A DNA stretch of 64,000 nt from Candidatus Sungiibacteriota bacterium (GTDB lineage Bacteria > Patescibacteriota > Minisyncoccia > Sungbacterales > HO2-52-23), in assembly GCA_016432465.1 (NCBI GenBank), contig CP066690.1, forward strand, positions 186,702 through 250,701. Direction: 5' to 3'. Positions within the stretch are counted from its first letter, which is position 1, and each line of letters begins with the position of its first letter. A program made the position numbers and the translations under genes. Of this stretch, positions 7,777 to 50,172 are shown one piece after another. The notes under the pieces are model-generated. The model had not been told where the DNA came from, did no database searches, and saw only the letters and a program-made list of their open reading frames with translations.

Positions 7777-8359
7777 AGGTTTATAAGTTCTATTTAATCT
7801 GGAAACCTATTCCTGCCTTCTGTAGTTACAGATTGCAGGAGGGCTTCCTGTGGACGAAGCGCTCATTTTTTATGTGTCGACGAATTGCACATAAACTAGG
7901 GGCGCTTTTTAATTTATTAATTGATAAACAAATAAATGTGGAGTCAAGCCTGCACCCGCGCTTCTTGCGAAGCACGAGATCGACCGGACCTTGAATCTCC
8001 AGACGATCAAATTTCTAAGTTATAAGATTTTTGCCTTTTAAGTTGTCAAGGTTCCCTCCGTTCAACCGTAAATCATTCTTGCAAGCCACATATCAAGCAA
8101 GTCTATCTTTTTAAGTATACCGGCCTGATATATGATTTGCAAACAAGCCCCTGTGGATATTGTAAACCAGCCCAAAAATGGCTTTCTTGCCGAAAATTAT
8201 GAAAGGTAAAACATGCTAGTAACTTAATTATAAGTCCGGTGGGGAACCGCGCAAGCTGCATTTATCCACAGGCTTTTTTGATGATTTATATAAGCTATTA
8301 CAGCAGTCAAAATCCGTCAATATTGTCAGATTTAAAGATTTGTTGTCTAGAGTATCAAG

Positions 8360-18693: not shown

Positions 18694-21375
18694 TTATTTT
18701 GCCCCTGCCGCAATTCGCGTGCGGTTGTTAGTTTTTTTAACGTTTTTTGAGAATGTAACCCCTCCATCTCTCACATCAACCAGCACAGAGTCGCCGCCGC
18801 TAATTTTCCCGCCGATAATCTCCTGCGCCATAGGATCAAGAATAAAAGTTTGGATGGCGCGTTTAAGCGGCCGTGCGCCATACTGAGGGTCGTATCCCTT
18901 ATCGGATACGAATTTTTTAAGCTCCGGGGTGAAAGAAACCGTAATTTCACGCATTCCCATCCTGTTTTTAACCCGCTCCAGCTGTATCTCCACAATTTTC
19001 TGAATTACAGCCGGAGTGAGCGAAGAGAAAATAATAATCTCGTCCAGCCGGTTCAGAAACTCCGGCCGGAAATGGCGCTCCAGGGCCTTACGGATTTTCT
19101 CCTTCATATCTCCTTCTTCTCTCTCCCGCGTGTCTTCGTCAGCCCCCATAAATCCGATTCGTCCAAGTTCCTGCGCATACTCGCCGCCAATGTTGGAAGT
19201 CATTATAATAATCGTATTTTTGAAGTTTATGGTGCGGCCCTTGGCATCAGTCAGACGGCCATTGTCCAGAATCTGCAGCAGGATATTGAAAACATCCGGA
19301 TGTGCTTTTTCAATTTCATCAAAAAGCACAACCGCATAAGGCCGATGTTTAATAAGTTCAGTCAGTTGTCCGCCCTCTTCATACCCAACGTAACCCGGGG
19401 GAGAACCAATAAATTTAGAAACAGTGTGGCGCTCCATATATTCGGACATATCCACGCGGATTAAAGACTTCTCATCCGAAAAAAGAGATTCGGCCAAGGC
19501 CTTGGCTAGTTCAGTTTTCCCTACGCCCGTAGGACCGAGAAATATAAAGGAACCGATCGGACGATTTTCCTCGGCAATCCCCGCGCGGGAGCGCCGGACG
19601 GCATTGGCAATTTTTTGTATGGCCTCATTCTGACCAATGACGCGTCTTTTGAGCTCTTCTTCAATTTTAAGAAGCCTAGATGCTTCAGATTCCAAAATTT
19701 TAGTAACCGGAATCCCGGTCCAGCGAGCCACAATTGTACCGATATCATCCTCCACCACCTCCCCACGCAAGAGGTGACGCGAATTCTGCAGTTTTATCAG
19801 TTGTTTTTCTGTATCATGAAGTTTTTTCTCAAGCTGAGGGATTTTACCATAACGAAGCTCGGCCACCTTTCCAAACTCTCCTGCACGCTCCGCAATATCA
19901 GATTCCTGACGTGTAGAGTCAAGGTCTTTTTTAAAAACGCGGACATTGGCAATGGTTTCTTTTTCTTCTTTCCATGATTTTTCAAAATCCTCGGTGCTCT
20001 TTTGAAGTCCGGTAATATCCGACTCAATTTTTTTAAGGCGCTCGCGGGATTTTTTATCGTGCTCTTTTTTTAAGGCTTCCTTTTCAATCTCCAGTTTCAT
20101 TATTTTGCGGCGGGAGTCATCAAGTTCTTTAGGAAGACTATCCATTTCCAGCCTCAAAGAAGAAGCCGCCTCATCCATCAGATCAACGGCCTTATCCGGC
20201 AAAAACCTATCCGTGATGTAGCGGGATGAAAGCTGGGCCGCGGCCACCAGTGCCCCATCTGTAATTTTTACTCCGTGGTGCGCCTCGTACTTTGGTTTTA
20301 GCCCACGCAAAATCGCAACGGTATCGTCCACGCTCGGCTCATCCACATAAACCGGCTGGAAACGCCGCGCCAGGGCCGGATCCCGCTCAATATGGCGCTG
20401 ATATTCTTTAAGGGTGGTTGCGCCAATAGCATGCAGTTCACCCCGCGCCAGAGCCGGTTTTAGCATATTGGAAGCATCAATCGCGCCCTCGGCTGCTCCT
20501 GCGCCAACCAAAGTATGCAGCTCGTCAATAAAAATTATGTATTTGCCCTGACTGCGCTCAATTTCGCGCAGAATTGCTTTTAGTCTGTCCTCAAATTCTC
20601 CGCGATATTTTGTTCCGGCAATTATGGCCGCAAGATCAATGGCTATCAACTCTTTATCTTTCAGTGTCTCTGGCACGTCTCCGGAAACAATGCGCTCGGC
20701 CAAACCCTCGGCAATCGCGGTTTTCCCCACTCCGGCCTCGCCAATTAACACCGGATTATTTTTGGTGCGGCGCGACAAGACCTGCATCACGCGCCTGATT
20801 TCTTCATCCCGGCCAATTACCGGATCAAGTTTTTCCTGACGAGCAAGACGGGTCAAGTTGCGCGCGTATTTTTCCACTACATTATATTTAGTCTCCGGTT
20901 CCATATCCGTAATCCTCTGCCCGCCTCTTAACTCGGCTAAGGCGCGCAAAACAATTTCTTTATTCAAACCCTCGCGATCCAAAATTTCTTTGGCGCGGGA
21001 AGGAACTTCAAGCAGGGAGAGAAAAAGATGCTCGGTGGAAATAAATTCGTCTTTTAACTGCGCGGCCTCACGATGAGCCTGCTCAATTATTTTGGCAAGG
21101 TCCTGCGTCAAATAAACCTGTCCCAAGGGGGTGGCAATCATGGCCCCTCGCGGCATGGCATCCAGCGTCTCCAAAAGCCTGTCAATAAAAGACGGTATAT
21201 CAATTTCAAGTTTTTCCAAAATGGCATCCACCGTGCCTTCTTCCTGAAGCACAAGCGCGGCAAACAAATGCAGCACATCAATTTGCTGATGTGATCTTTC
21301 CAGGGCCAAATCATGCGCTTTTTTAAGCGCCTCTTGGGCTTTAATGGTAAATTGTTGAAAAGGCGGCATATACAA
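18694..21375 (-). CDS. clpB: ATP-dependent chaperone ClpB
   Basis: Clp N-domain, two AAA+ modules ([15 protein letters not shown]; [15 protein letters not shown]), middle coiled coil; 893 aa. Confidence 0.95.
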
Positions 21376-42052: not shown

Positions 42053-43130
42053 ACTCACTTCTGCTTCAATAAATTCACCCAACCCACCGTCCAATACCGC
42101 ATCAATGTTTGAAGTCTCAACCCCTGTCCTGTGGTCCTTCACCATCTGATACGGATGCATAACATAAGAACGGATCTGGCTACCCCATTCCACTGCTACC
42201 TTTTCCTGACGAATTCCTTGCCGTTCTTTTTCCTGACGCTGCAGCTCAAATTGATACAGCCGCGAACGCAAAAGCCCAAGCGCCAGCTCCCGGTTTCGTT
42301 CCTGCGTTCGCTCAACTTGCGAAGCAACTTGTATTCCGGTTGGCAAATGCGTGACCCGCACCGCAGTCTCTCTTTTATTTACATTCTGCCCGCCCGGTCC
42401 GGAGGAACGGAAAAAATCAATTTTCAAATCTTCCGGTTTAATTTCAACTTCTTCCGGGGCGACAAATTCCGGCATAACGTCAGCCAAGGCAAAAGAAGTG
42501 TGGCGGAGCGATTGCGCCGAAAAAGGCGAAATACGCACCAGCCGATGCACTCCGGACTCCTTTTTCAGATACCCGTAAGCGTGGGGAGCTACTATTAATA
42601 TAGTAGCATTTTTTATGCCCCAGCCCCCAGGCCCTTGATTCTCACCCCAATGCTCATGTATGGTCTTTGTTTTCCAGCCGCGTTTCTCACCAAAACGCCG
42701 GTACATCCGTAAAAGCAAAGCTGCCCAGTCTTCGGCGTCCTTACCTCCTGCTCCGGAATAAATTGACAGTACGGCATTGCCCTTATCATACTTCCCGGAA
42801 AAATAAAGCTCTGTTTCCGCTTCTTTTACTTTCTTATCAAGAGCTGCAACCTCTTCCGCTAATTTTGCCTCTCCTTCGCCAACTTCCAGGAGCTCTTTGA
42901 GCATAGCGGCTTCGGCTGCCATCTTTTCAATCCGTTCAGACTCGCGCTTTAATGCCGCCAATTCCTGACTTTGCTCTGCTGCCCGTTTTTTGTCTGCCCA
43001 GAAGTCTGGGCGCTGCATCTCCTGTTCAATTTTCAAAATTTCCTCTTGTTTTCCGGCAATGTCAAAGCCGGTCCGCCAATTGGCGGATCTTAACTTCCAG
43101 TTCGTTAACTTTTTCTTTCTGGTCTTCCAT
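42044..43130 (-). CDS. prfB: Peptide chain release factor 2 with a programmed +1 ribosomal frameshift
   Basis: Frame 0 MEDQKEKVNELEVKIRQLADRL then CTT TGA C at 43062-43067; the +1 frame continues DIAGKQEEILKIEQEM...SGPGGQNVNKRETAVRVTHLPTG (GGQ motif). Confidence 0.9.
43062..43067 (-). other. prfB autoregulatory +1 frameshift site CTT TGA C
   Basis: Identical to the canonical RF2 recoding heptamer; the in-frame TGA follows Leu22. Confidence 0.85.
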
Positions 43131-43179
43131 AACATACAGTATACCATAATCCCAAAATTTAAAAAGCGCGACCGACGGG

Positions 43180-43836
43180 TCACGCCTCTTTTGCTTGGGG
43201 TACAGTACTTGATTTACCCTCCTCCCAAAAACCAAAAATGATGCCTCCGATTTCAAGTTGATATACCATAACAAAGTGCGGGTCACCAGCAAAACGTTCC
43301 TCTGCTTTATACACGTCACTCACAAAGAAATGTATACGATCCTCACTTTGATCAGAAAAGTTTTTCTTAAGACTTGCTATAGTTCTAAGATCAATTAGCG
43401 GTATTTCTCTCGCATAAGGATTAAAACTACTATAAAAACCACCATACTGATAGGAGAAAGATTCCCCGCCAAACTTAAACCCATCAATCTTATCTCTGGG
43501 CCGTAATGCTTTCCAAACCCACTCACGATAAATAGACGCGTCTTCTGGTGAATCATCCGGAATCACTTTGTCGGGTACTTCTTTGCGCGGCCTAAGGTTA
43601 AGAAAACCAAAAACCTCTTGCGGATTATAAATGAGGATCTTTTGTGTCTTCAGAAAGAACAATATCGCTCTCCGCAAAACCGTAGGCAAGTGACACCCAA
43701 CAGCTTGTATAAGTTGGGTGTATTCCTCTAGCTCCTCCGGGCTCATTCCAATATCAGCATCGGTTACCTCACGCGGCTCCGGCTTTTTAATTGCCGGTCT
43801 TGGCAGCGATAGTTGCCTGCGCTTTTCCCAGAACAT
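43180..43836 (-). CDS. Hypothetical protein, paralogue A of a tandem pair
   Basis: Shares KKPEPREV / VIPDD / W.ALRP.D / FFVS / IIFG.W blocks with the next gene. Confidence 0.55.
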   Translation of the reverse strand: MFWEKRRQLSLPRPAIKKPEPREVTDADIGMSPEELEEYTQLIQAVGCHLPTVLRRAILFFLKTQKILIYNPQEVFGFLNLRPRKEVPDKVIPDDSPEDASIYREWVWKALRPRDKIDGFKFGGESFSYQYGGFYSSFNPYAREIPLIDLRTIASLKKNFSDQSEDRIHFFVSDVYKAEERFAGDPHFVMVYQLEIGGIIFGFWEEGKSSTVPQAKEA

Positions 43837-43861
43837 TGGTGCTCCTTTCCTGGTCTTGGTT

Positions 43862-44566
43862 TTAGGCTACTTCTTCCGACGGAATTTCAGCAAAATCCGG
43901 TCCGTTCCAGTGGCCGAAAATTATCGGCTGCATATTGTCACCACGGACTATAATAAACGCCGGGTCATCAATGGTTCTACGGCTGATATACAGGCTAACA
44001 AAGAAGTTTATTCTGATATCAAATTTTTTAGCAAGAAGCACTGCCGTCTCCAGCACCTTACGGGGGACAATATCAGAATAGTGTGGGGAGCCAGCACCAG
44101 AAAAGTAACCATGCGAATATGTTCTATTATGTGTGTGCTCATCTGGAAAAGAAAAGGTGCGTGCGTTTAGGTCTTTTGGGCGTAGCGCCATCCAACCCCA
44201 ACCTCTCCAAGAAACAGGTTGTTTCTTTTGGACTCCGTCGTCAGGAATAATTTTCCTTGGCTCGGGTTGAGAAACCAAAAAGTCACAGGCCTGAAGGTAT
44301 AAAAACACAGCTTCTTTTTCGTAGATTTTAATGCCCGAACTTTTAAGCAGTAGCAGCAATTCTGCCCTCAATGCCGCCGCGGGCTGAAAATCAATGCTGG
44401 CGCCAAGCCGGCAATACTCTAACCACGTTTTCTCGTCAAAATCACCGTAAAGTTCTGGTATTTCTTGGGGTTCTGGCCTTTTGACCATTATTAATTTTGA
44501 AGGTGCAGGAGTAATTCCATCTGCTTTTTTAACCGGGAGTTTGCTTCTTGATGTAAAAAGAGACAT
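43862..44566 (-). CDS. Hypothetical protein, paralogue B of the tandem pair
   Basis: KRPEPQEI, IIPDD, WMALRPKD, FFVS, IIFGHW. Confidence 0.55.
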   Translation of the reverse strand: MSLFTSRSKLPVKKADGITPAPSKLIMVKRPEPQEIPELYGDFDEKTWLEYCRLGASIDFQPAAALRAELLLLLKSSGIKIYEKEAVFLYLQACDFLVSQPEPRKIIPDDGVQKKQPVSWRGWGWMALRPKDLNARTFSFPDEHTHNRTYSHGYFSGAGSPHYSDIVPRKVLETAVLLAKKFDIRINFFVSLYISRRTIDDPAFIIVRGDNMQPIIFGHWNGPDFAEIPSEEVA

Positions 44567-44656
44567 CCTTTAATCCCCCATCAAGCTAGCATCTAGTATT
44601 GCATAACTATATAACTTTGTCAAGTGACAGCAAAAAAACGGCGTTGAACGCCGTCT

Positions 44657-45322
44657 TCAGCCATGAAACCGATCAACCCTGTTGGACAGACTGTAGAAAC
44701 TTAATAGCGGGGTTTGGTGAGCTGTAGCTTCCCCTGTACCCGCTTCATGCGGTTGTTCATCCAGAATTTCTTTGGTTTTGCTAAGCTTTGTAAACCGTCT
44801 TTGCAGGAACAAAAATTTTATTCTCTTGAAAAGCCCAAAGTCAAAAATTCCCCGAATTCCCATAATAATCTCTTCAAGGGTTATCGTAACAGTTCCGGCT
44901 AATAGGAAGGTGGCGACAGAACGAGCCACTGGTTCTACTGTATTATCCATAACTCCCCAATAAGAAGTTGCGGCCGAAATTATCAAAGTAAGAAAGCCGA
45001 CTGCGGCAATATTGCGTTTGACCGAGCGCACAACTATTTTTTCCAATTCCTTCCTTTCGTGATCAGGCAACCCGCACAGCTCAAGCGTATCATCAAACAT
45101 GTATCTTCTGACGTATCGCTCCAGAAGCCTATGGTACTCTAACGAGTCCCTAGTCAGTCTTTGTTTACGAAACTCCAAGGCTTCTTTTCTGGCTGTCTCT
45201 TGGGCCTCAACCCTCTGCTTTTGAGCAAGACGCTCAAGCTCATGATGCCGTTCTATGCGCCTTGTCTGAATACGTTCACGTGCATTTTGCATGATCACCG
45301 GATCCATTTTTTCACCTCGCAC
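44657..45322 (-). CDS. Hypothetical protein with a central TM segment
   Basis: Charged N-terminal coiled region; AAVGFLTLIISAATSYWGV TM. Confidence 0.45.
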   Translation of the reverse strand: MRGEKMDPVIMQNARERIQTRRIERHHELERLAQKQRVEAQETARKEALEFRKQRLTRDSLEYHRLLERYVRRYMFDDTLELCGLPDHERKELEKIVVRSVKRNIAAVGFLTLIISAATSYWGVMDNTVEPVARSVATFLLAGTVTITLEEIIMGIRGIFDFGLFKRIKFLFLQRRFTKLSKTKEILDEQPHEAGTGEATAHQTPLLSFYSLSNRVDRFHG

Positions 45323-46149
45323 TGGTTCTCTTCCAAAACGACAAGTAACTCCTTATGAAATAAGGTACGGGCAAACTCTTCCTCCTCGTCTGCGCCCTCA
45401 TTTCTTACCAAAGTTAGGTTGAAAATACCCCCATTCAGCGTCAGCACGACATCTGTAAAAGACACGGCAACCATATTTTTATTAATTTTTTCTGTTTTTC
45501 CGCTGCCCTCGTAGTGCGCCAAGTGACCAAGACGGTCACAATAAACTGCCGCAGCACCCCGAAAAAGTAAGGTTTGGTCGCTAGCTAGTCCGAGATTGTG
45601 ACGCACCAAAATAGAATTTGTGTCTTCCTTAAGTTCTTTTTCCCCCGCGTCATCCCTTCTAAACTTTCTAATTCTTCTGCAGTCACACCTAACTTTTTCC
45701 TCTCTCCAAAAACTCCAGTTACCAAAAGATTGTAAAAGGGCGCTAATCTTCCCCTGCTTTGTTCCACCCAGCCATGCGGCGTCCGCAAGCAAAGTTCCTT
45801 CTGAAGGAAACCCTGTTTTTTCGTTCCACACCACACTGCATATTTGTGGCGCGTCTTTCTGATGTTCCAGAACCTCGGCGTGAGCCGCAAGAGCAAGGAG
45901 AAACATTTTGTGCAAGACGGCCATCGCATAGAAGTCGGGGCCAGACTTTTTTATTTCAAATTTAGAGACCGTATCCAGCCGTTCTTGAATACGCGCCAGT
46001 GATTCCTCGGGCGTAAGGATGTTTGCCCATGGCTCTTTCTGTATAGAAGAAGCCTGTTCCTGCTGTCCAAAGACAAAATCTCCAGAAAGTTCGCCCAAGG
46101 GAACAGAAAGTAACCCACCACCGTCAACAGCTCCCATAAGTCTCCCCAA
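45295..46149 (-). CDS. Hypothetical protein
   Basis: Co-oriented ORF; no motif recognised. Confidence 0.45.
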   Translation of the reverse strand: MGRLMGAVDGGGLLSVPLGELSGDFVFGQQEQASSIQKEPWANILTPEESLARIQERLDTVSKFEIKKSGPDFYAMAVLHKMFLLALAAHAEVLEHQKDAPQICSVVWNEKTGFPSEGTLLADAAWLGGTKQGKISALLQSFGNWSFWREEKVRCDCRRIRKFRRDDAGEKELKEDTNSILVRHNLGLASDQTLLFRGAAAVYCDRLGHLAHYEGSGKTEKINKNMVAVSFTDVVLTLNGGIFNLTLVRNEGADEEEEFARTLFHKELLVVLEENQCEVKKWIR

Positions 46150-46283
46150 ACAAGTAGTAAAAAGCTGTATCTATTATAATCATGAAACGACCCATGAGTC
46201 AAGTCCTTCGTAATGGTTCAATAGCTTGTAACCACCCCGTATAAATTAAAAACAGGTTCCCCTATGGAAACCCGTTCTTCTTT

Positions 46284-46538
46284 CTATTTTTTATCTGCTG
46301 CCTTCTTGCGTCCGGAGCGTTCCTGTTTTTTTGCGTCAGCCCTACCCTTTTCAAACTGACCCACAATGGTTCCTGCACCGTAAACAGTCCTTTTGGTCAA
46401 TTCTCCTGCTGCTTCGGCGGCATTTCCCATCAGTCTTTTTCCGCGCTCCCAAAGATAACTTCCCACTACTCTAGTCTGCCCCTTCAGGAACTCAAGCTCT
46501 GGACTAAACTTCCGGTGGTCGTTTTTGTCTTTAGCCAC
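46284..46538 (-). CDS. Small hypothetical protein (84 aa)
   Basis: Co-oriented ORF; basic C-terminus. Confidence 0.4.
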   Translation of the reverse strand: MAKDKNDHRKFSPELEFLKGQTRVVGSYLWERGKRLMGNAAEAAGELTKRTVYGAGTIVGQFEKGRADAKKQERSGRKKAADKK

Positions 46539-46543
46539 GACTA

Positions 46544-46765
46544 CTACTCCCTATCCCTATTTTCTCTTCGTCTTGCTTTAGAAACAAGCCAAACTAACCC
46601 CAACACACCCGCAACTGGCACCGCTAATGCCGTTACAGTAGTAATCGCCATACTGCCAACCCCGAGTGAAAAACCAAGCACTTTCCATAAAGCCGCTCCT
46701 CCTGCTCCAGCAACTACTATCGGTCCTACCAAATTCCCCACACTGCGTGCACTACTCCTTGCCAT
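46544..46765 (-). CDS. Small glycine-zipper membrane protein (start probably at the internal Met MARSSARS)
   Basis: GPIVVAGAGGAALWKVLGFSLGVGSMAITTVTALAVPVAGVLGLVWLV. Confidence 0.45.
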   Translation of the reverse strand: MARSSARSVGNLVGPIVVAGAGGAALWKVLGFSLGVGSMAITTVTALAVPVAGVLGLVWLVSKARRRENRDRE

Positions 46766-47789
46766 CGGCCGCCTCCCCTTGCTGAACGGCACCTTCTGCC
46801 GTCTGTTCCCCACCAGCTTTTGCTGCGGGACCAACCGCCCTGCTTCTTACCCGCGCCTCAAGTTGCAGGCGCCCGGAAGACGCGGGCCCCAAGACGCGGG
46901 CACATTTTTCACGCAACTCTGTATCCGCCAACTCAAGACGTTCTACAAGTTCACGACCTGCTACAGGACGCTTATTTAAAACCTCCATCACGTCAACTGC
47001 GGCCATCAGGGATTGATGCGAACTCTCAACCGTCTTTATCAGCAACTCACCCGCAACAAAAACGCCTCTACCTGCCCCAAGCGCGGCCCTAGCAGCCTCG
47101 CGATGCGCGGTGATACTTGGCTTCAAGGTGGCAAACTCAACGTACATCGCTATCACCATATGTATGATGCCTAGAATCTCATTGCTTACCGAACTTAATT
47201 TCCGGCTTGCCTTCTCCAGAGCGGTTTTTCTTCTTTGCAGACTAGCAAGAATCATTTGAGCAAAGATGTCTTTTTCTTCTTGGTCCATGTTTTCGCCGCG
47301 AAGTCTAAGAAGTTCAACCACTTCCGGATCAATTGCCAAACCCATTTTATTTGATTCATCAAGACTGTACTTAAAAAGCTCTTCCTCGTCCCAACCACCT
47401 TCTGTGGCATCTTGAATGACTCCAGCAAGACGTTCCTTTTCTTCTGCATTATTCATTTCTACATACTTAATATCCAAGGCGCTCTCCTGAAGACTGTTGG
47501 CCCACTCTCTTATCACCTGCTCTGCCCCCACCAGCGGATCAAATCTGTTATCCATAAAACCAAACAACAATTTTTGAACCTTTTTGATGGGTATCAAAGC
47601 CACCACACCTTCCATCACGCCCCTTAAAAAGTCCTCGGCCGAAGACGGCTCTGATTCCATCATCTCTTCCAGACGCTCTGGCAACTTCTCTCTTTGTTCG
47701 TTAGCTGCTCTTACCTTCCTAATTATTGCTTCAATGCTGCGTCCGCCTTCTAAACGATCTCGTGTTTCAACAACTCCGCTGACTGCCAT
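46752..47789 (-). CDS. Coiled-coil hypothetical protein (345 aa) in a GC-richer segment
   Basis: Long helical/charged regions; a TelA-like assignment was considered but not supported. Confidence 0.5.
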   Translation of the reverse strand: MAVSGVVETRDRLEGGRSIEAIIRKVRAANEQREKLPERLEEMMESEPSSAEDFLRGVMEGVVALIPIKKVQKLLFGFMDNRFDPLVGAEQVIREWANSLQESALDIKYVEMNNAEEKERLAGVIQDATEGGWDEEELFKYSLDESNKMGLAIDPEVVELLRLRGENMDQEEKDIFAQMILASLQRRKTALEKASRKLSSVSNEILGIIHMVIAMYVEFATLKPSITAHREAARAALGAGRGVFVAGELLIKTVESSHQSLMAAVDVMEVLNKRPVAGRELVERLELADTELREKCARVLGPASSGRLQLEARVRSRAVGPAAKAGGEQTAEGAVQQGEAADGKE

Positions 47790-47979
47790 CTTTGCCTCCG
47801 TACGGCTTGAAGCCAGTGTAGACTATGCTGTTTAGAGTATACAACCTCTACAAATCTATGTCAAGTTTAGCGTGGGGGTTTATCAAAAATTCCGCCACGC
47901 CCTCGCTTGCCTGCCCGTCCGAATCCGTCAGCTGGCAGAGAAGGCTGGACGGCAAATCCTTTGAAAAGTTAAAAATGGA

Positions 47980-48005
47980 AACGGAGCACCATAGGGTGCT
48001 CCGTT
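47980..48005 (-). terminator. Intrinsic terminator AACGGAGCACC atag GGTGCTCCGTT downstream of the GC-rich secreted-protein gene
   Basis: 11-bp stem followed by TTCCATTTTTAACTTTT on the minus strand. Confidence 0.55.
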
Positions 48006-48018
48006 GGAACTGCTCCGT

Positions 48019-48450
48019 CTAATAACTGCAGTAACGCTTCTCGCCGAAGCGTTCCTGCGGATAACTCCGCAGGCACTTCAGGGTCATCAGGTTCCTCTGG
48101 AAGACTGCCAGCACCGCCGACACGGAGTCCACGTCTTCGAAGTTGAAAACGAGGTCCGTGTCATCAAGACAGGCACCAGTGATGCGACGCCCGGTCGTGC
48201 CTGCCTGCCGGGACATCTCGAGCGCCCGCTTGAGCGCCCGAATCCCGACCCTGTTTTCGGCGATCAGCTTGGAGAGGGGCTGATCGCCATTCGGGACGAC
48301 GTACCCGAAGGCATTCCGCCCTCTCTTCACGTCCCTGCAAAGCGAGTCGGCGGTCGCCGCCTCGCTCGGGTGGTGGGCGAAAACCGGGGTGGCGAGGGCC
48401 ATCACGGCGAGGAACACCACAGCGAGAACGACGATGAACTTCAACCTCAT
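48019..48450 (-). CDS. Secreted Cys-containing small protein encoded in a GC-rich islet
   Basis: Signal peptide MRLKFIVVLAVVFLAVMALATPVFAHHP; AGAGGAGG Shine-Dalgarno 7 nt upstream; local GC content visibly higher than the flanking sequence. Confidence 0.6.
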   Translation of the reverse strand: MRLKFIVVLAVVFLAVMALATPVFAHHPSEAATADSLCRDVKRGRNAFGYVVPNGDQPLSKLIAENRVGIRALKRALEMSRQAGTTGRRITGACLDDTDLVFNFEDVDSVSAVLAVFQRNLMTLKCLRSYPQERFGEKRYCSY

Positions 48451-48612
48451 GGGAACCTCCTCTCGTTTGATTGCCGCAGCGGTATGCTACGGCAACAAAG
48501 AAAAAACTAACCTCTTAACTCCCTCTTTGTTGCCGTAGAATATAGCCTATTTTAAGATACTTAGTAGCTAACTCAATAGTAACATAAATGTAGAAAAAAG
48601 TCAAATAAATTA

Positions 48613-48777
48613 GCCTACCCCGGGACTTGAACCCGAAACCCATTTACCCCGTTAGATGTGCCAATGAGCCGGTGGTCGGATTTGAACCGACGACCCACGC
48701 TTTACGAAAGCGTTGCTCTACCACTGAGCTACACCGGCACATCTAACGGGGTTGCTCTGCCATTGAGCTAGGTCGGC
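48613..48777 (-). other. Split tRNA-like sequence whose 5' half (acceptor and D-arm) and 3' half (T-arm and acceptor) are separated by an insertion bounded by a perfect 16-bp inverted repeat (CCCCGTTAGATGTGCC) that contains tRNA-Thr
   Basis: 5' half GCCGACCTAGCTCAATGGCAGAGCAACCCC; 3' half GGGGTAAATGGGTTTCGGGTTCAAGTCCCGGGGTAGGCT; inverted repeats at 48647-48662 and 48736-48751. Confidence 0.35.
48667..48738 (-). tRNA. tRNA-Thr (anticodon CGT)
   Basis: GCCGGTGTAGCTCAGTGGTAGAGCAACGCTTTCGTAAAGCGTGGGTCGTCGGTTCAAATCCGACCACCGGCT; anticodon stem ACGCT/AGCGT, loop TTCGTAA. Confidence 0.75.
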
Positions 48778-48840
48778 ATTTCTAACGTTCCTGCTAAACT
48801 GTCAAACATCGAACATGTCAAACATTGAATGTCTGACATA

Positions 48841-50172
48841 TCAATTGTGATTAAGGGCTCCTTCAGTATAAATATTAGCGGCGTTCCAAAGGAGCCACCC
48901 GTGCGGCTCTGCTTTTTCTGCGGCTTCAACTTGTTTACGAATTTTCTCAACGCCCCATGGCCTACCAGCGACCCTATCTTCTTCATGGAAAAAATCTTCA
49001 AGCCACGGACGGAGACGCGCCCGGGAACGGGGAGTAGAACTTGCGGCTAGAGTTATTGCGGAAGTGGCCGGAGAAAAACCGTTAAAGGTGCTCGTGCTGA
49101 TTTTTCCATCAAGAAAATCTCTGGCAAACTGCAGCGAACGATATACCACAACGTCGGGATTTTTGCGGGCCTGCGACACACTAAAATTAACGACCGGTAA
49201 ATTCTTGTCCGGGTCGGCCTGAAGATAAAGTCCGCTGTAGTAGTGTGAAGGGTAAACCATAAATGATACGTAGTCAAAATTGTCGCCGATGTCATCTAGC
49301 CGCTGACCAATGCCCACGTCTCCGGCCCGAATCGCGGCGTACCCAAAAAGATCTGCCGAAAGTATTATATCCGGTTTGTGGGCCTTAAGATTTTTATTTA
49401 AATACTCAAAAAAACTTTTCATAACCGAGTACTTGGGGGCTTTTCCGTCCCAAGCAGGATAAATAGCATTCTCTACATCGCCGTCCGAAGGAAACCTTAA
49501 ATAGTCAAACTGCAATTCATCAAAACCCAAATCAATTATTTTTTTAGAAAAGTCCGCAATATACTCGCGCGCGCCCTGATGAGCAGGATCCAACCAATAG
49601 CCCCCGCGTTTATCGCGCCAAAAAACCACATCCGGTTTTTTACCCTCCGGACTTTTAGCGCGGAGATATTTTTTTCTGCCGCACTCATCGCCAACCGCTT
49701 TAGGACTTTTTCTGGTCAGGTACCAGTCGGGGTGCGTTTCAATCTGCGAGGCATCTTTGAAAGCAACAATCCGCGCAATAACCCAAATCTTTTTTTGATG
49801 AAGCTCCGCAATCAATTTTTTTAAACTTTCGGCGTTATAGTCAGGCCCGCAGACTTCTTTAACGTCAATCACAAGACCGTTGATCTCTGTCTCGTCAGCA
49901 AGCTCAATAATTTTCTTGCGAAGCCGTGTACCCGCAACACCCTGATCATTGGCCACGTCTGCTGTCATATAAAGTCCCTTGACGGTTTGGGACTTTTTAA
50001 GGGCTTCGGCCAGTAATTCTGCGGAGGTTTTTTCTTTAGCGGGCTGCATACCGGACGTCAAAATCCCACCAGCCAAATTGCCTATAAATATTTTTGGTGC
50101 GGCCCAGTAAATAGTTAAGGCGGCGGCACCAACTATGATTCCCGTGCCAAGACCCATCAAAAACCTATTCAT
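48841..50172 (-). CDS. Membrane-anchored putative glycoside-hydrolase-like TIM-barrel protein (GHL10/DUF4015-like)
   Basis: N-terminal TM; GYWLDPAHQGAREYI and FDELQFDYLRFP motifs. Confidence 0.55.
   Translation of the reverse strand: MNRFLMGLGTGIIVGAAALTIYWAAPKIFIGNLAGGILTSGMQPAKEKTSAELLAEALKKSQTVKGLYMTADVANDQGVAGTRLRKKIIELADETEINGLVIDVKEVCGPDYNAESLKKLIAELHQKKIWVIARIVAFKDASQIETHPDWYLTRKSPKAVGDECGRKKYLRAKSPEGKKPDVVFWRDKRGGYWLDPAHQGAREYIADFSKKIIDLGFDELQFDYLRFPSDGDVENAIYPAWDGKAPKYSVMKSFFEYLNKNLKAHKPDIILSADLFGYAAIRAGDVGIGQRLDDIGDNFDYVSFMVYPSHYYSGLYLQADPDKNLPVVNFSVSQARKNPDVVVYRSLQFARDFLDGKISTSTFNGFSPATSAITLAASSTPRSRARLRPWLEDFFHEEDRVAGRPWGVEKIRKQVEAAEKAEPHGWLLWNAANIYTEGALNHN

Follow-up and report, generated by a model that had tools for sequence, protein, structure and literature searches.

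A putative moron-like gene cassette with G+C-rich silent sites beside a tRNA-Thr locus in a Candidatus Sungiibacteriota genome

The 923-kb genome of Candidatus Sungiibacteriota, an ultra-small groundwater bacterium, contains a short islet of unusually G+C-rich DNA next to a tRNA-Thr locus. Here we analysed the 64-kb stretch around it (the window; mean G+C 0.465). The islet corresponds to a single gene on the reverse strand (coding sequence, CDS, 48019-48450, with the stop codon TAG at 48019-48021), whose 143-aa precursor is identical to the NCBI hypothetical protein QQG45524.1 (HYW89_01125). The reading that we favour, with a confidence close to even, is that the islet is a moron-like mobile cassette for an exported, disulfide-stabilised helical protein acting extracellularly, and that its package of silent-site features is probably under selection. 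Compositional outliers are routinely taken as recent horizontal transfers, and the islet is a further case of a known category, namely a gene of deviant composition without relatives in a tRNA-adjacent variable slot. What is new here is the persistence and the co-occurrence of its signature, which is found again in unrelated mini-genes and, within one family, outlasts a divergence that should have erased it.

The G+C content is 0.618 in the CDS and 0.599 in the interval 47975-48510, as compared with 0.465 in the window. The highest G+C of any 432-nt sliding window in the 64 kb falls at 47994-48425 (0.63, z 4.18), while the runner-up peak has a z of 3.07. A first-pass annotation of the letters had already described this region as G+C-rich, correctly so, apart from the trivial slip that a run quoted as GGCGACGACGTACCC... 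actually reads GGGACGACGTACCCGAAGGCATTCCGCCC. The G+C content at the first, second and third codon positions (GC1/GC2/GC3) is 0.60/0.43/0.82 for the islet CDS (GC3 0.819) and 0.54/0.39/0.45 for 46 other long open reading frames (ORFs) of the window, with standard deviations of 0.042/0.060/0.044. The resulting z-scores of the islet are 1.5/0.7/8.4, and the maximum GC3 among the 46 other ORFs is 0.55. The G+C surplus is wholly synonymous, at codon position 3, and the window has no second credible ORF with such a high GC3. The G+C step matches the limits of the CDS, and the promoter and leader region is A+T-rich (0.39). The 3' non-coding flank (47866-47979) is itself somewhat G+C-rich (0.52). The islet gene uses TTC, AAG, ATC and CAG nearly exclusively. 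The residents prefer TTT, AAA and ATT, and this includes the putatively highly expressed genes for AhpC, SOD, IscU, ClpB, Pgk and FtsH, which rules out translational selection as the cause of the codon bias.

The gene is accompanied by its own expression signals. The Shine-Dalgarno sequence AGAGGAGG (48456-48463, reverse strand) is located 5 nt ahead of the ATG, with no second copy in the window; GGAGG is present 4-20 nt ahead of the start in 4 of the 46 other ORFs, in agreement with the rarity noted at first pass. At the 3' end, the intrinsic terminator AACGGAGCACC-CTAT-GGTGCTCCGTT with the T-rich tail TCCATTTTTA (47970-48005, reverse strand) has an 11-bp stem with seven G-C pairs and a 4-nt loop, and its stem-loop lies at 48005-47980, where a clean terminator had been announced. 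A consensus scan yielded two promoter-like sites as candidates for the islet gene, both on the reverse strand: the upstream one is TTGACT-17 nt-TACTAT with a TG before the -10 element (48576-48604), and the second is TTGAGT-16-TAAAAT (48549-48576). The scan found four such sites where 1.1 would be expected in 1.5 kb. The next gene (345 aa, 46752-47789) has a near-consensus promoter-like site of its own, TTGACA-17-TATACT (47836-47864, reverse strand; 11 of 12 matches), and therefore the islet is probably a separate transcription unit. A strong hairpin (48483-48542, reverse strand) separates the tRNA locus from the islet gene, with 19-nt arms that are 95% complementary and a 22-nt loop. It extends to about 24 bp, and transcription from either promoter candidate would place it in the 5' leader. 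This hairpin could serve in processing or regulation, or mark the border of an insertion.

The product is probably a Sec-exported domain of about 13 kDa with three helices and two probable disulfides. Read by eye and not by a trained predictor, the N-terminus looks like a Sec signal peptide, with a positively charged MRLK, a 17-residue hydrophobic core FIVVLAVVFLAVMALAT and then PVFA/HH, which has small residues at -3 and -1 (the slash marks the predicted cleavage). The putative signal peptide, of the signal-peptidase-I type, comprises residues 1-25 (MRLKFIVVLAVVFLAVMALATPVFA, then HH; 48376-48450, reverse strand). Cysteines are found at residues 38, 94, 126 and 141. The suggestion of a lipoprotein, also made at first pass, is rejected: the precursor has no lipobox, and its first cysteine is residue 38, 13 residues past the predicted cleavage site. 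The mature protein would have 118 residues, a mass of 13.2 kDa and an isoelectric point (pI) of 9.05. AlphaFold2 models the mature domain as three long helices and a tiny beta hairpin (predicted local distance difference test score, pLDDT, 80.7; predicted template modelling score, pTM, 0.79). The model of the full-length precursor is poor (pLDDT 64.5) and its Foldseek matches are meaningless. With the mature-domain model, Foldseek searches of PDB and BFVD returned generic helical bundles only (best E 0.24 to 0.54, template modelling scores of about 0.5 or less), and sequence searches of Pfam, NCBIfam, PHROGs, PADLOC and PDB gave no match. In phmmer, residues 42-72 (K.G.NAF.Y...NGD..L.KLI.E) weakly resemble successive repeats of a 1238-aa ankyrin-repeat protein, at 30 bits and with an E-value inflated by five weak repeat matches. 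We regard this resemblance as only a weak lead. Unlike ankyrin helix-turn-helix arrays, the islet protein would have a single repeat at most and has no Pfam Ank match, and the AlphaFold2 model assigns some of the motif to a long helix.

To this protein (P0001) there is a single true homolog, P0002 (139 aa, 44% identity), in an exhaustive phmmer search over 1.84 billion representatives that stand for about 15 billion proteins. A profile search and word-index searches by sequence and by profile revealed no member beyond these two, and the family was not found in IMG/VR or in phage and plasmid collections. P0002 retains the signal peptide, the cleavage context A-x-A/HP (...AIAPA/HP) and all four cysteines; a signal peptide and four cysteines had been noted in the 143-aa protein at first pass. 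The two proteins have the motifs GR.AFGYVVPNGD.PL..LIA and TLKCL...P.ERF in common, and their genes have nucleotide identities of 0.62/0.67/0.43 at the three codon positions. This pattern, together with the kept signal peptide and cysteines, indicates that the islet is a real protein gene under purifying selection. At four-fold degenerate sites within identical amino acids, 16 of 37 are the same (0.43, as compared with 0.35 at saturation), and swaps between G and C dominate the differences. Both copies are near silent-site saturation, yet each has a GC3 of about 80%.

P0002 is encoded in locus L001, a 5.2-kb contig of 46.4% G+C, between the genes for an MraY-type transferase and an amidohydrolase. 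Its CDS (L001 2933-3352) has a G+C of 0.63 and a GC3 of 0.80, as compared with 0.41-0.48 and 0.34-0.47 in the flanking genes, and it has the same kinds of signals, namely TTGACA-17-TATAAC, AGGAGG and a terminator. In relatives of L001 whose MraY is about 90% or more identical, other genes come after mraY, a beta-eliminating lyase gene in L002 and a PaaX-like gene in L004. No partner, immunity or transporter gene is kept beside both copies. Together, these comparisons suggest that each family member is an autonomous cassette and that the two occupy variable slots in two different patescibacterial genomes of intermediate G+C. An antisense gene was also considered, on the basis of a 168-aa ORF on the forward strand and its counterpart in L001, and was judged a by-product: the codon-aligned antisense frame is open since A-ending codons are rare.

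The signature is not limited to the islet family. In the lineage of L001, a family of 90-96 aa is encoded at L002 4418-4690, L003 7594-7884 and L004 3312-3587 with GC3 values of 0.92, 0.88 and 0.86, and a 144-aa membrane protein at L003 1721-2155 has a GC3 of 0.82 (all on the reverse strand). The contigs of these mini-genes have 45-46% G+C. Each of the further mini-genes carries TTGA(C/T)T-17-TATAAT, GGAGG and a strong terminator. Across the protein database, the 90-aa family has no relatives beyond its three members. Its gene is syntenic in three genomes, with scpB on one side and a peptidase-S11 gene on the other, and only L005, the sister of L002, lacks it. The flanking genes share 36-49% of their four-fold sites, as compared with 25% at saturation, or about 1.1 substitutions per site for each pair. 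The normalised silent similarity of the 90-aa gene itself is 0.26-0.38, like that of the flanks (about 0.23). Neutral amelioration over this divergence would roughly halve the GC3 excess in each lineage, so that an ancestral GC3 above 1 would be required. We thus infer that the GC3 excess of the 90-aa family is actively maintained. Since this family keeps its GC3 across diverged orthologs, high GC3 alone is no evidence of recent import in these genomes.

The Shine-Dalgarno sequence goes along with the silent-site composition. GGAGG precedes six of six GC3-rich mini-genes and 5 of 81 residents (hypergeometric p about 1e-6, or about 6e-5 with orthologs counted once), a count in which the window ORFs start at the longest ORF and some starts may be misplaced. 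Residents are mostly without a Shine-Dalgarno sequence, as GGAGG is found at 4 of the 46 window ORFs and at 1 of 35 called genes in L001-L005. Among 262 kb of other loci whose G+C is 50% or less, GC3-rich ORFs were detected in L001-L004 only, and the class is thus not ubiquitous. A milder form of the theme was observed on the Saccharibacteria-labelled contig L009 (37.6% G+C), where a 68-aa signal-peptide protein (18764-18970) has its own TTGACA-17-TATTAT promoter and terminator, a raised GC3 (0.65) and no strong Shine-Dalgarno sequence.

In the islet family, the silent sites also show an excess of predicted folding. Compared with dinucleotide shuffles, the CDSs of the islet and P0002 have folding z-scores of -5.3 and -5.1. 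Compared with permutations of synonymous codons that keep both the protein and the codon usage, the values are -4.85 and -3.78, and for each gene none of 300 permutations reached the native energy. Twelve control segments of 432 nt from high-G+C patescibacterial genes gave a mean z of -0.74 (standard deviation 1.1, minimum -2.55), and resident genes scatter around 0. The 90-aa family, with z-scores of -0.7 to -2.1, is without a folding excess.

We then propose a model for the islet. A self-contained cassette, made up of a predicted sigma-70-type promoter, a GGAGG site, a 432-nt CDS and an intrinsic terminator, would belong to a family that has moved between patescibacterial genomes, as two members occupy two different variable slots. 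The high GC3, the strong ribosome-binding site and the stable predicted mRNA fold would belong to the cassette itself and be retained by selection. The target of this selection may be a G+C-rich, structured, probably long-lived and well-translated mRNA, so that the islet would not merely be un-ameliorated donor DNA. The protein would most likely work extracellularly, on the surface of the cell or on the partner of this episymbiont, and would have no dedicated partner gene.

The closest parallel is offered by the morons of lambdoid prophages, which are reportedly autonomous promoter-gene-terminator units of deviant composition. Like them, the islet is one small gene with a factor-independent terminator, has a composition unlike that of its neighbours, and is placed between genes that are adjacent in related genomes; its candidate sigma-70-type promoters would be a further likeness. 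Unlike morons, it resides in a patescibacterial chromosome and not in a recognisable prophage, with no matches in PHROGs or phage collections, and its deviant composition appears to persist, not to fade. The islet also resembles integron cassettes, as a single short movable ORF with a composition unrelated to that of the host and a hairpin-forming 3' end. It differs from them in having its own predicted promoter, and inspection by eye, with no formal search, found no attC-type site (RYYYAAC...GTTRRRY in the right order), intI or array. With tRNA-adjacent islands the islet block shares the position directly downstream of tRNA-Thr, the variable cargo in comparative loci and the tRNA fragments nearby; unlike such islands, it has neither an integrase nor att-type repeats, and only one of its eight genes deviates in composition.

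On the reverse strand, the gene order is a DUF4015 gene, the tRNA-Thr locus, the islet, seven ORFs and prfB-ftsE-ftsX. The seven ORFs (345, 96, 84, 284, 221, 234 and 218 aa; 43180-47789, reverse strand) have no family matches and are of ordinary composition (GC3 0.39-0.47). The last two (43180-44566, reverse strand) are paralogs with 31% identity over 213 residues and lie immediately upstream of prfB, the 218-aa ORF overlapping its start. The islet and the seven ORFs form a 5.4-kb lineage-specific block, with the islet at the tRNA-proximal end. In L008 (RF2 73% and FtsE 81% identical), the DUF4015 gene and tRNA-Thr(CGU) run straight on into prfB-ftsE-ftsX. Loci L043, L046 and L056 likewise have prfB immediately after tRNA-Thr, and unrelated cargo of 0.9-2 kb is found between the two in L040, L045 and L042/L052. 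The comparison of these loci shows that the interval between tRNA-Thr and prfB-ftsEX is a variable slot across Patescibacteria, which in the window is filled by the whole 5.4-kb block and not by the islet alone. In its variable content, the site fits the integration hotspot suggested by the first-pass annotation, but no machinery of integration was found. No integrase or recombinase domain is present in any of the eight ORFs of the block, and a repeat search over 42900-49000 gave only short chance-level direct repeats, with no att-type repeat bounding the block. An integrative island was rejected for this lack of att repeats. PHROGs recognise no phage gene families in the block (one match at E 0.013 only).

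The horizontal acquisition that had been proposed for the islet is plausible, as its codons look foreign, it sits in a variable slot and it is absent from the nearest available relatives. Its G+C-richness does not appear to be a safe sign of recent import, no donor was found, and the block is otherwise ordinary. A plain recent import, in which the CDS comes from an unsampled donor of about 60-65% G+C and is still un-ameliorated, the strong Shine-Dalgarno sequence reflects the habit of the donor and nothing is maintained, is nevertheless a serious possibility, although we consider it unlikely on balance. Several of the points in its favour weigh against our own reading. The codon usage of the islet matches a genome of about 62% G+C, GC1 is slightly raised, and Arg outnumbers Lys by 14 to 6. 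Patescibacteria of higher G+C exist: in relatives that share 57-81% identity with the window in DUF4015, RF2 and FtsE, the G+C is 0.59 (L006) and 0.54 (L008), as compared with 0.465; large genomic shifts of up to 12 points thus occur within this clade. The somewhat raised G+C of the 3' flank also fits an import. Further points weigh against the selected cassette: the putatively highly expressed residents do not share the codon preference of the mini-genes, which leaves it unexplained by classical translational selection; the islet family itself has only two, non-syntenic members; the maintenance argument comes from another gene family in another lineage; the promoters are consensus matches; export is predicted from sequence; and no functional homology was found. 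On the other side, the import reading is weakened because no donor lineage is found among about 15 billion proteins and both members are in genomes of about 46% G+C. Two recent imports, independent of each other and bringing versions with 44% identity into separate lineages, would have to be assumed. In addition, it does not account for the fit of the G+C step to the CDS beside an A+T-rich promoter and leader, for the sister class of GC3-rich genes that persists without amelioration, or for the excess of silent-site mRNA structure.

The folding statistics raise the question of whether the main role of the islet is that of a structured element, in RNA or DNA, or of a dual-function RNA, with the ORF secondary and the G+C-richness and self-complementarity serving a role of the nucleic acid. 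We find this very improbable. In its favour, folding z-scores of about -4 to -5 are seen on both strands and in both homologs. The most conserved motif also stands out: around the invariant AFGYVVPNGD codons (48283-48312, reverse strand), which form the hairpin GCCUUCGGG/CCCGAAUGGC, 30 of 31 nt are the same in both homologs despite saturated silent sites elsewhere. This hairpin is an exception, as the two mRNA folds are mostly not shared (RNAalifold consensus -68.8 as compared with about -200 kcal/mol, from two sequences only, too few for covariation). The unshared folds also count against a selected mRNA, as does the equally good folding of the antisense strands, which means that the signal could be at the DNA level. 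Since the antisense strands fold alike and the minimum-free-energy structures are unshared, the signal is an excess of silent-site self-complementarity, not a conserved RNA fold. Rfam gave only chance-level matches within 48019-48450 (E of 2.4 or more), and the period-3 composition and the pattern of conservation are typical of purifying selection on a protein. A Sec-dependent bacteriocin or toxin directed against competitors or the host bacterium, in line with an early suggestion of a bacteriocin-like product, is improbable too. The product is small, predicted to be exported, Cys-stabilised and, in the window copy, basic, and it is a singleton with a patchy distribution. However, the homolog is acidic to neutral (pI 6.5), the database searches described above show no similarity to such families, 118 residues is large for class II peptides, and both copies lack a conserved immunity or transporter gene beside them. 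For the secreted effector that was also suggested at first pass, the searches likewise gave no match in sequence or fold and no conserved partner gene. The chance of an assembly artefact or a contaminating fragment is negligible. The compositional step is sharp, and the independently assembled Logan contig L013 breaks precisely at the outer edge of the leader hairpin (48543, 93 nt upstream of the ATG). This same contig reproduces window positions 45423-48543 base for base and joins the islet to resident-type genes, and therefore the islet is not an assembly chimera. The homolog likewise has resident-type genes on both sides on one contig, and the islet promoter and leader are resident-like.

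It is tempting to extend the selected-cassette reading beyond this family, although we hold the extension as doubtful. Stand-alone mini-genes for small proteins of exported, membrane or unknown kind may form a distinct class in some Patescibacteria. In this class, a gene-specific force would hold the silent sites at 80-90% G+C together with a perfect Shine-Dalgarno sequence, which residents lack, and in the islet family also a tight mRNA. The signature would then mark a regime of expression or selection and not foreign origin. Candidate forces, all of them possibilities, are hyper-stable mRNAs for host interaction, evasion of an RNase or silencer directed at A+T-rich sequence, and a mobile gene pool with biased gene conversion. 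If this is true genome-wide, it would point to a gene-specific force on silent sites in ultra-small episymbiotic bacteria, and the signature would flag small exported proteins that are probably strongly expressed, as candidates for molecules of host attachment or exploitation. If it is not true, the islet would be no more than an imported gene of the ordinary kind, in a variable slot beside a tRNA.

The tRNA locus at the upstream border of the slot has a structure of its own. As the first-pass annotation had noted, the islet adjoins a tRNA-Thr/split-tRNA locus, in which tRNA-Thr(CGU) (48666-48738, reverse strand) lies inside a second, tRNA-Thr-derived cloverleaf (48615-48779, reverse strand). 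The acceptor, D and T arms of the outer tRNA-like sequence fold as a cloverleaf, and the complete inner tRNA caps its anticodon arm, which is a 17-bp perfect helix (ACCCCGTTAGATGTGCC/GGCACATCTAACGGGGT). The folding free energy (dG) of the nest is -83.5, with a z of -7.4. ARAGORN, intron mode included, and Rfam recognise the inner tRNA only, and not the outer one as an intron-containing tRNA. An integron reading of the GTTAGAT/ATCTAAC motifs flanking the inner tRNA was judged a coincidence, as their order is wrong for attC. Repeated integration at tRNA-Thr could have left the nest behind, or it could be a true nested or split tRNA. Ordinary tRNA-Thr genes in 66 metagenome contigs have a 5' half identical to the outer one. 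The same theme is found in L036 (about 8040-8300), L037, L032, L045, L006 (4150-4296) and L007 (8690-8930). In related loci, a full tRNA-Thr flanked by CCCGTTAGA/TCTAACGGG has one or two tRNA 3' halves after it, or a 5' half and a hairpin ahead of it.

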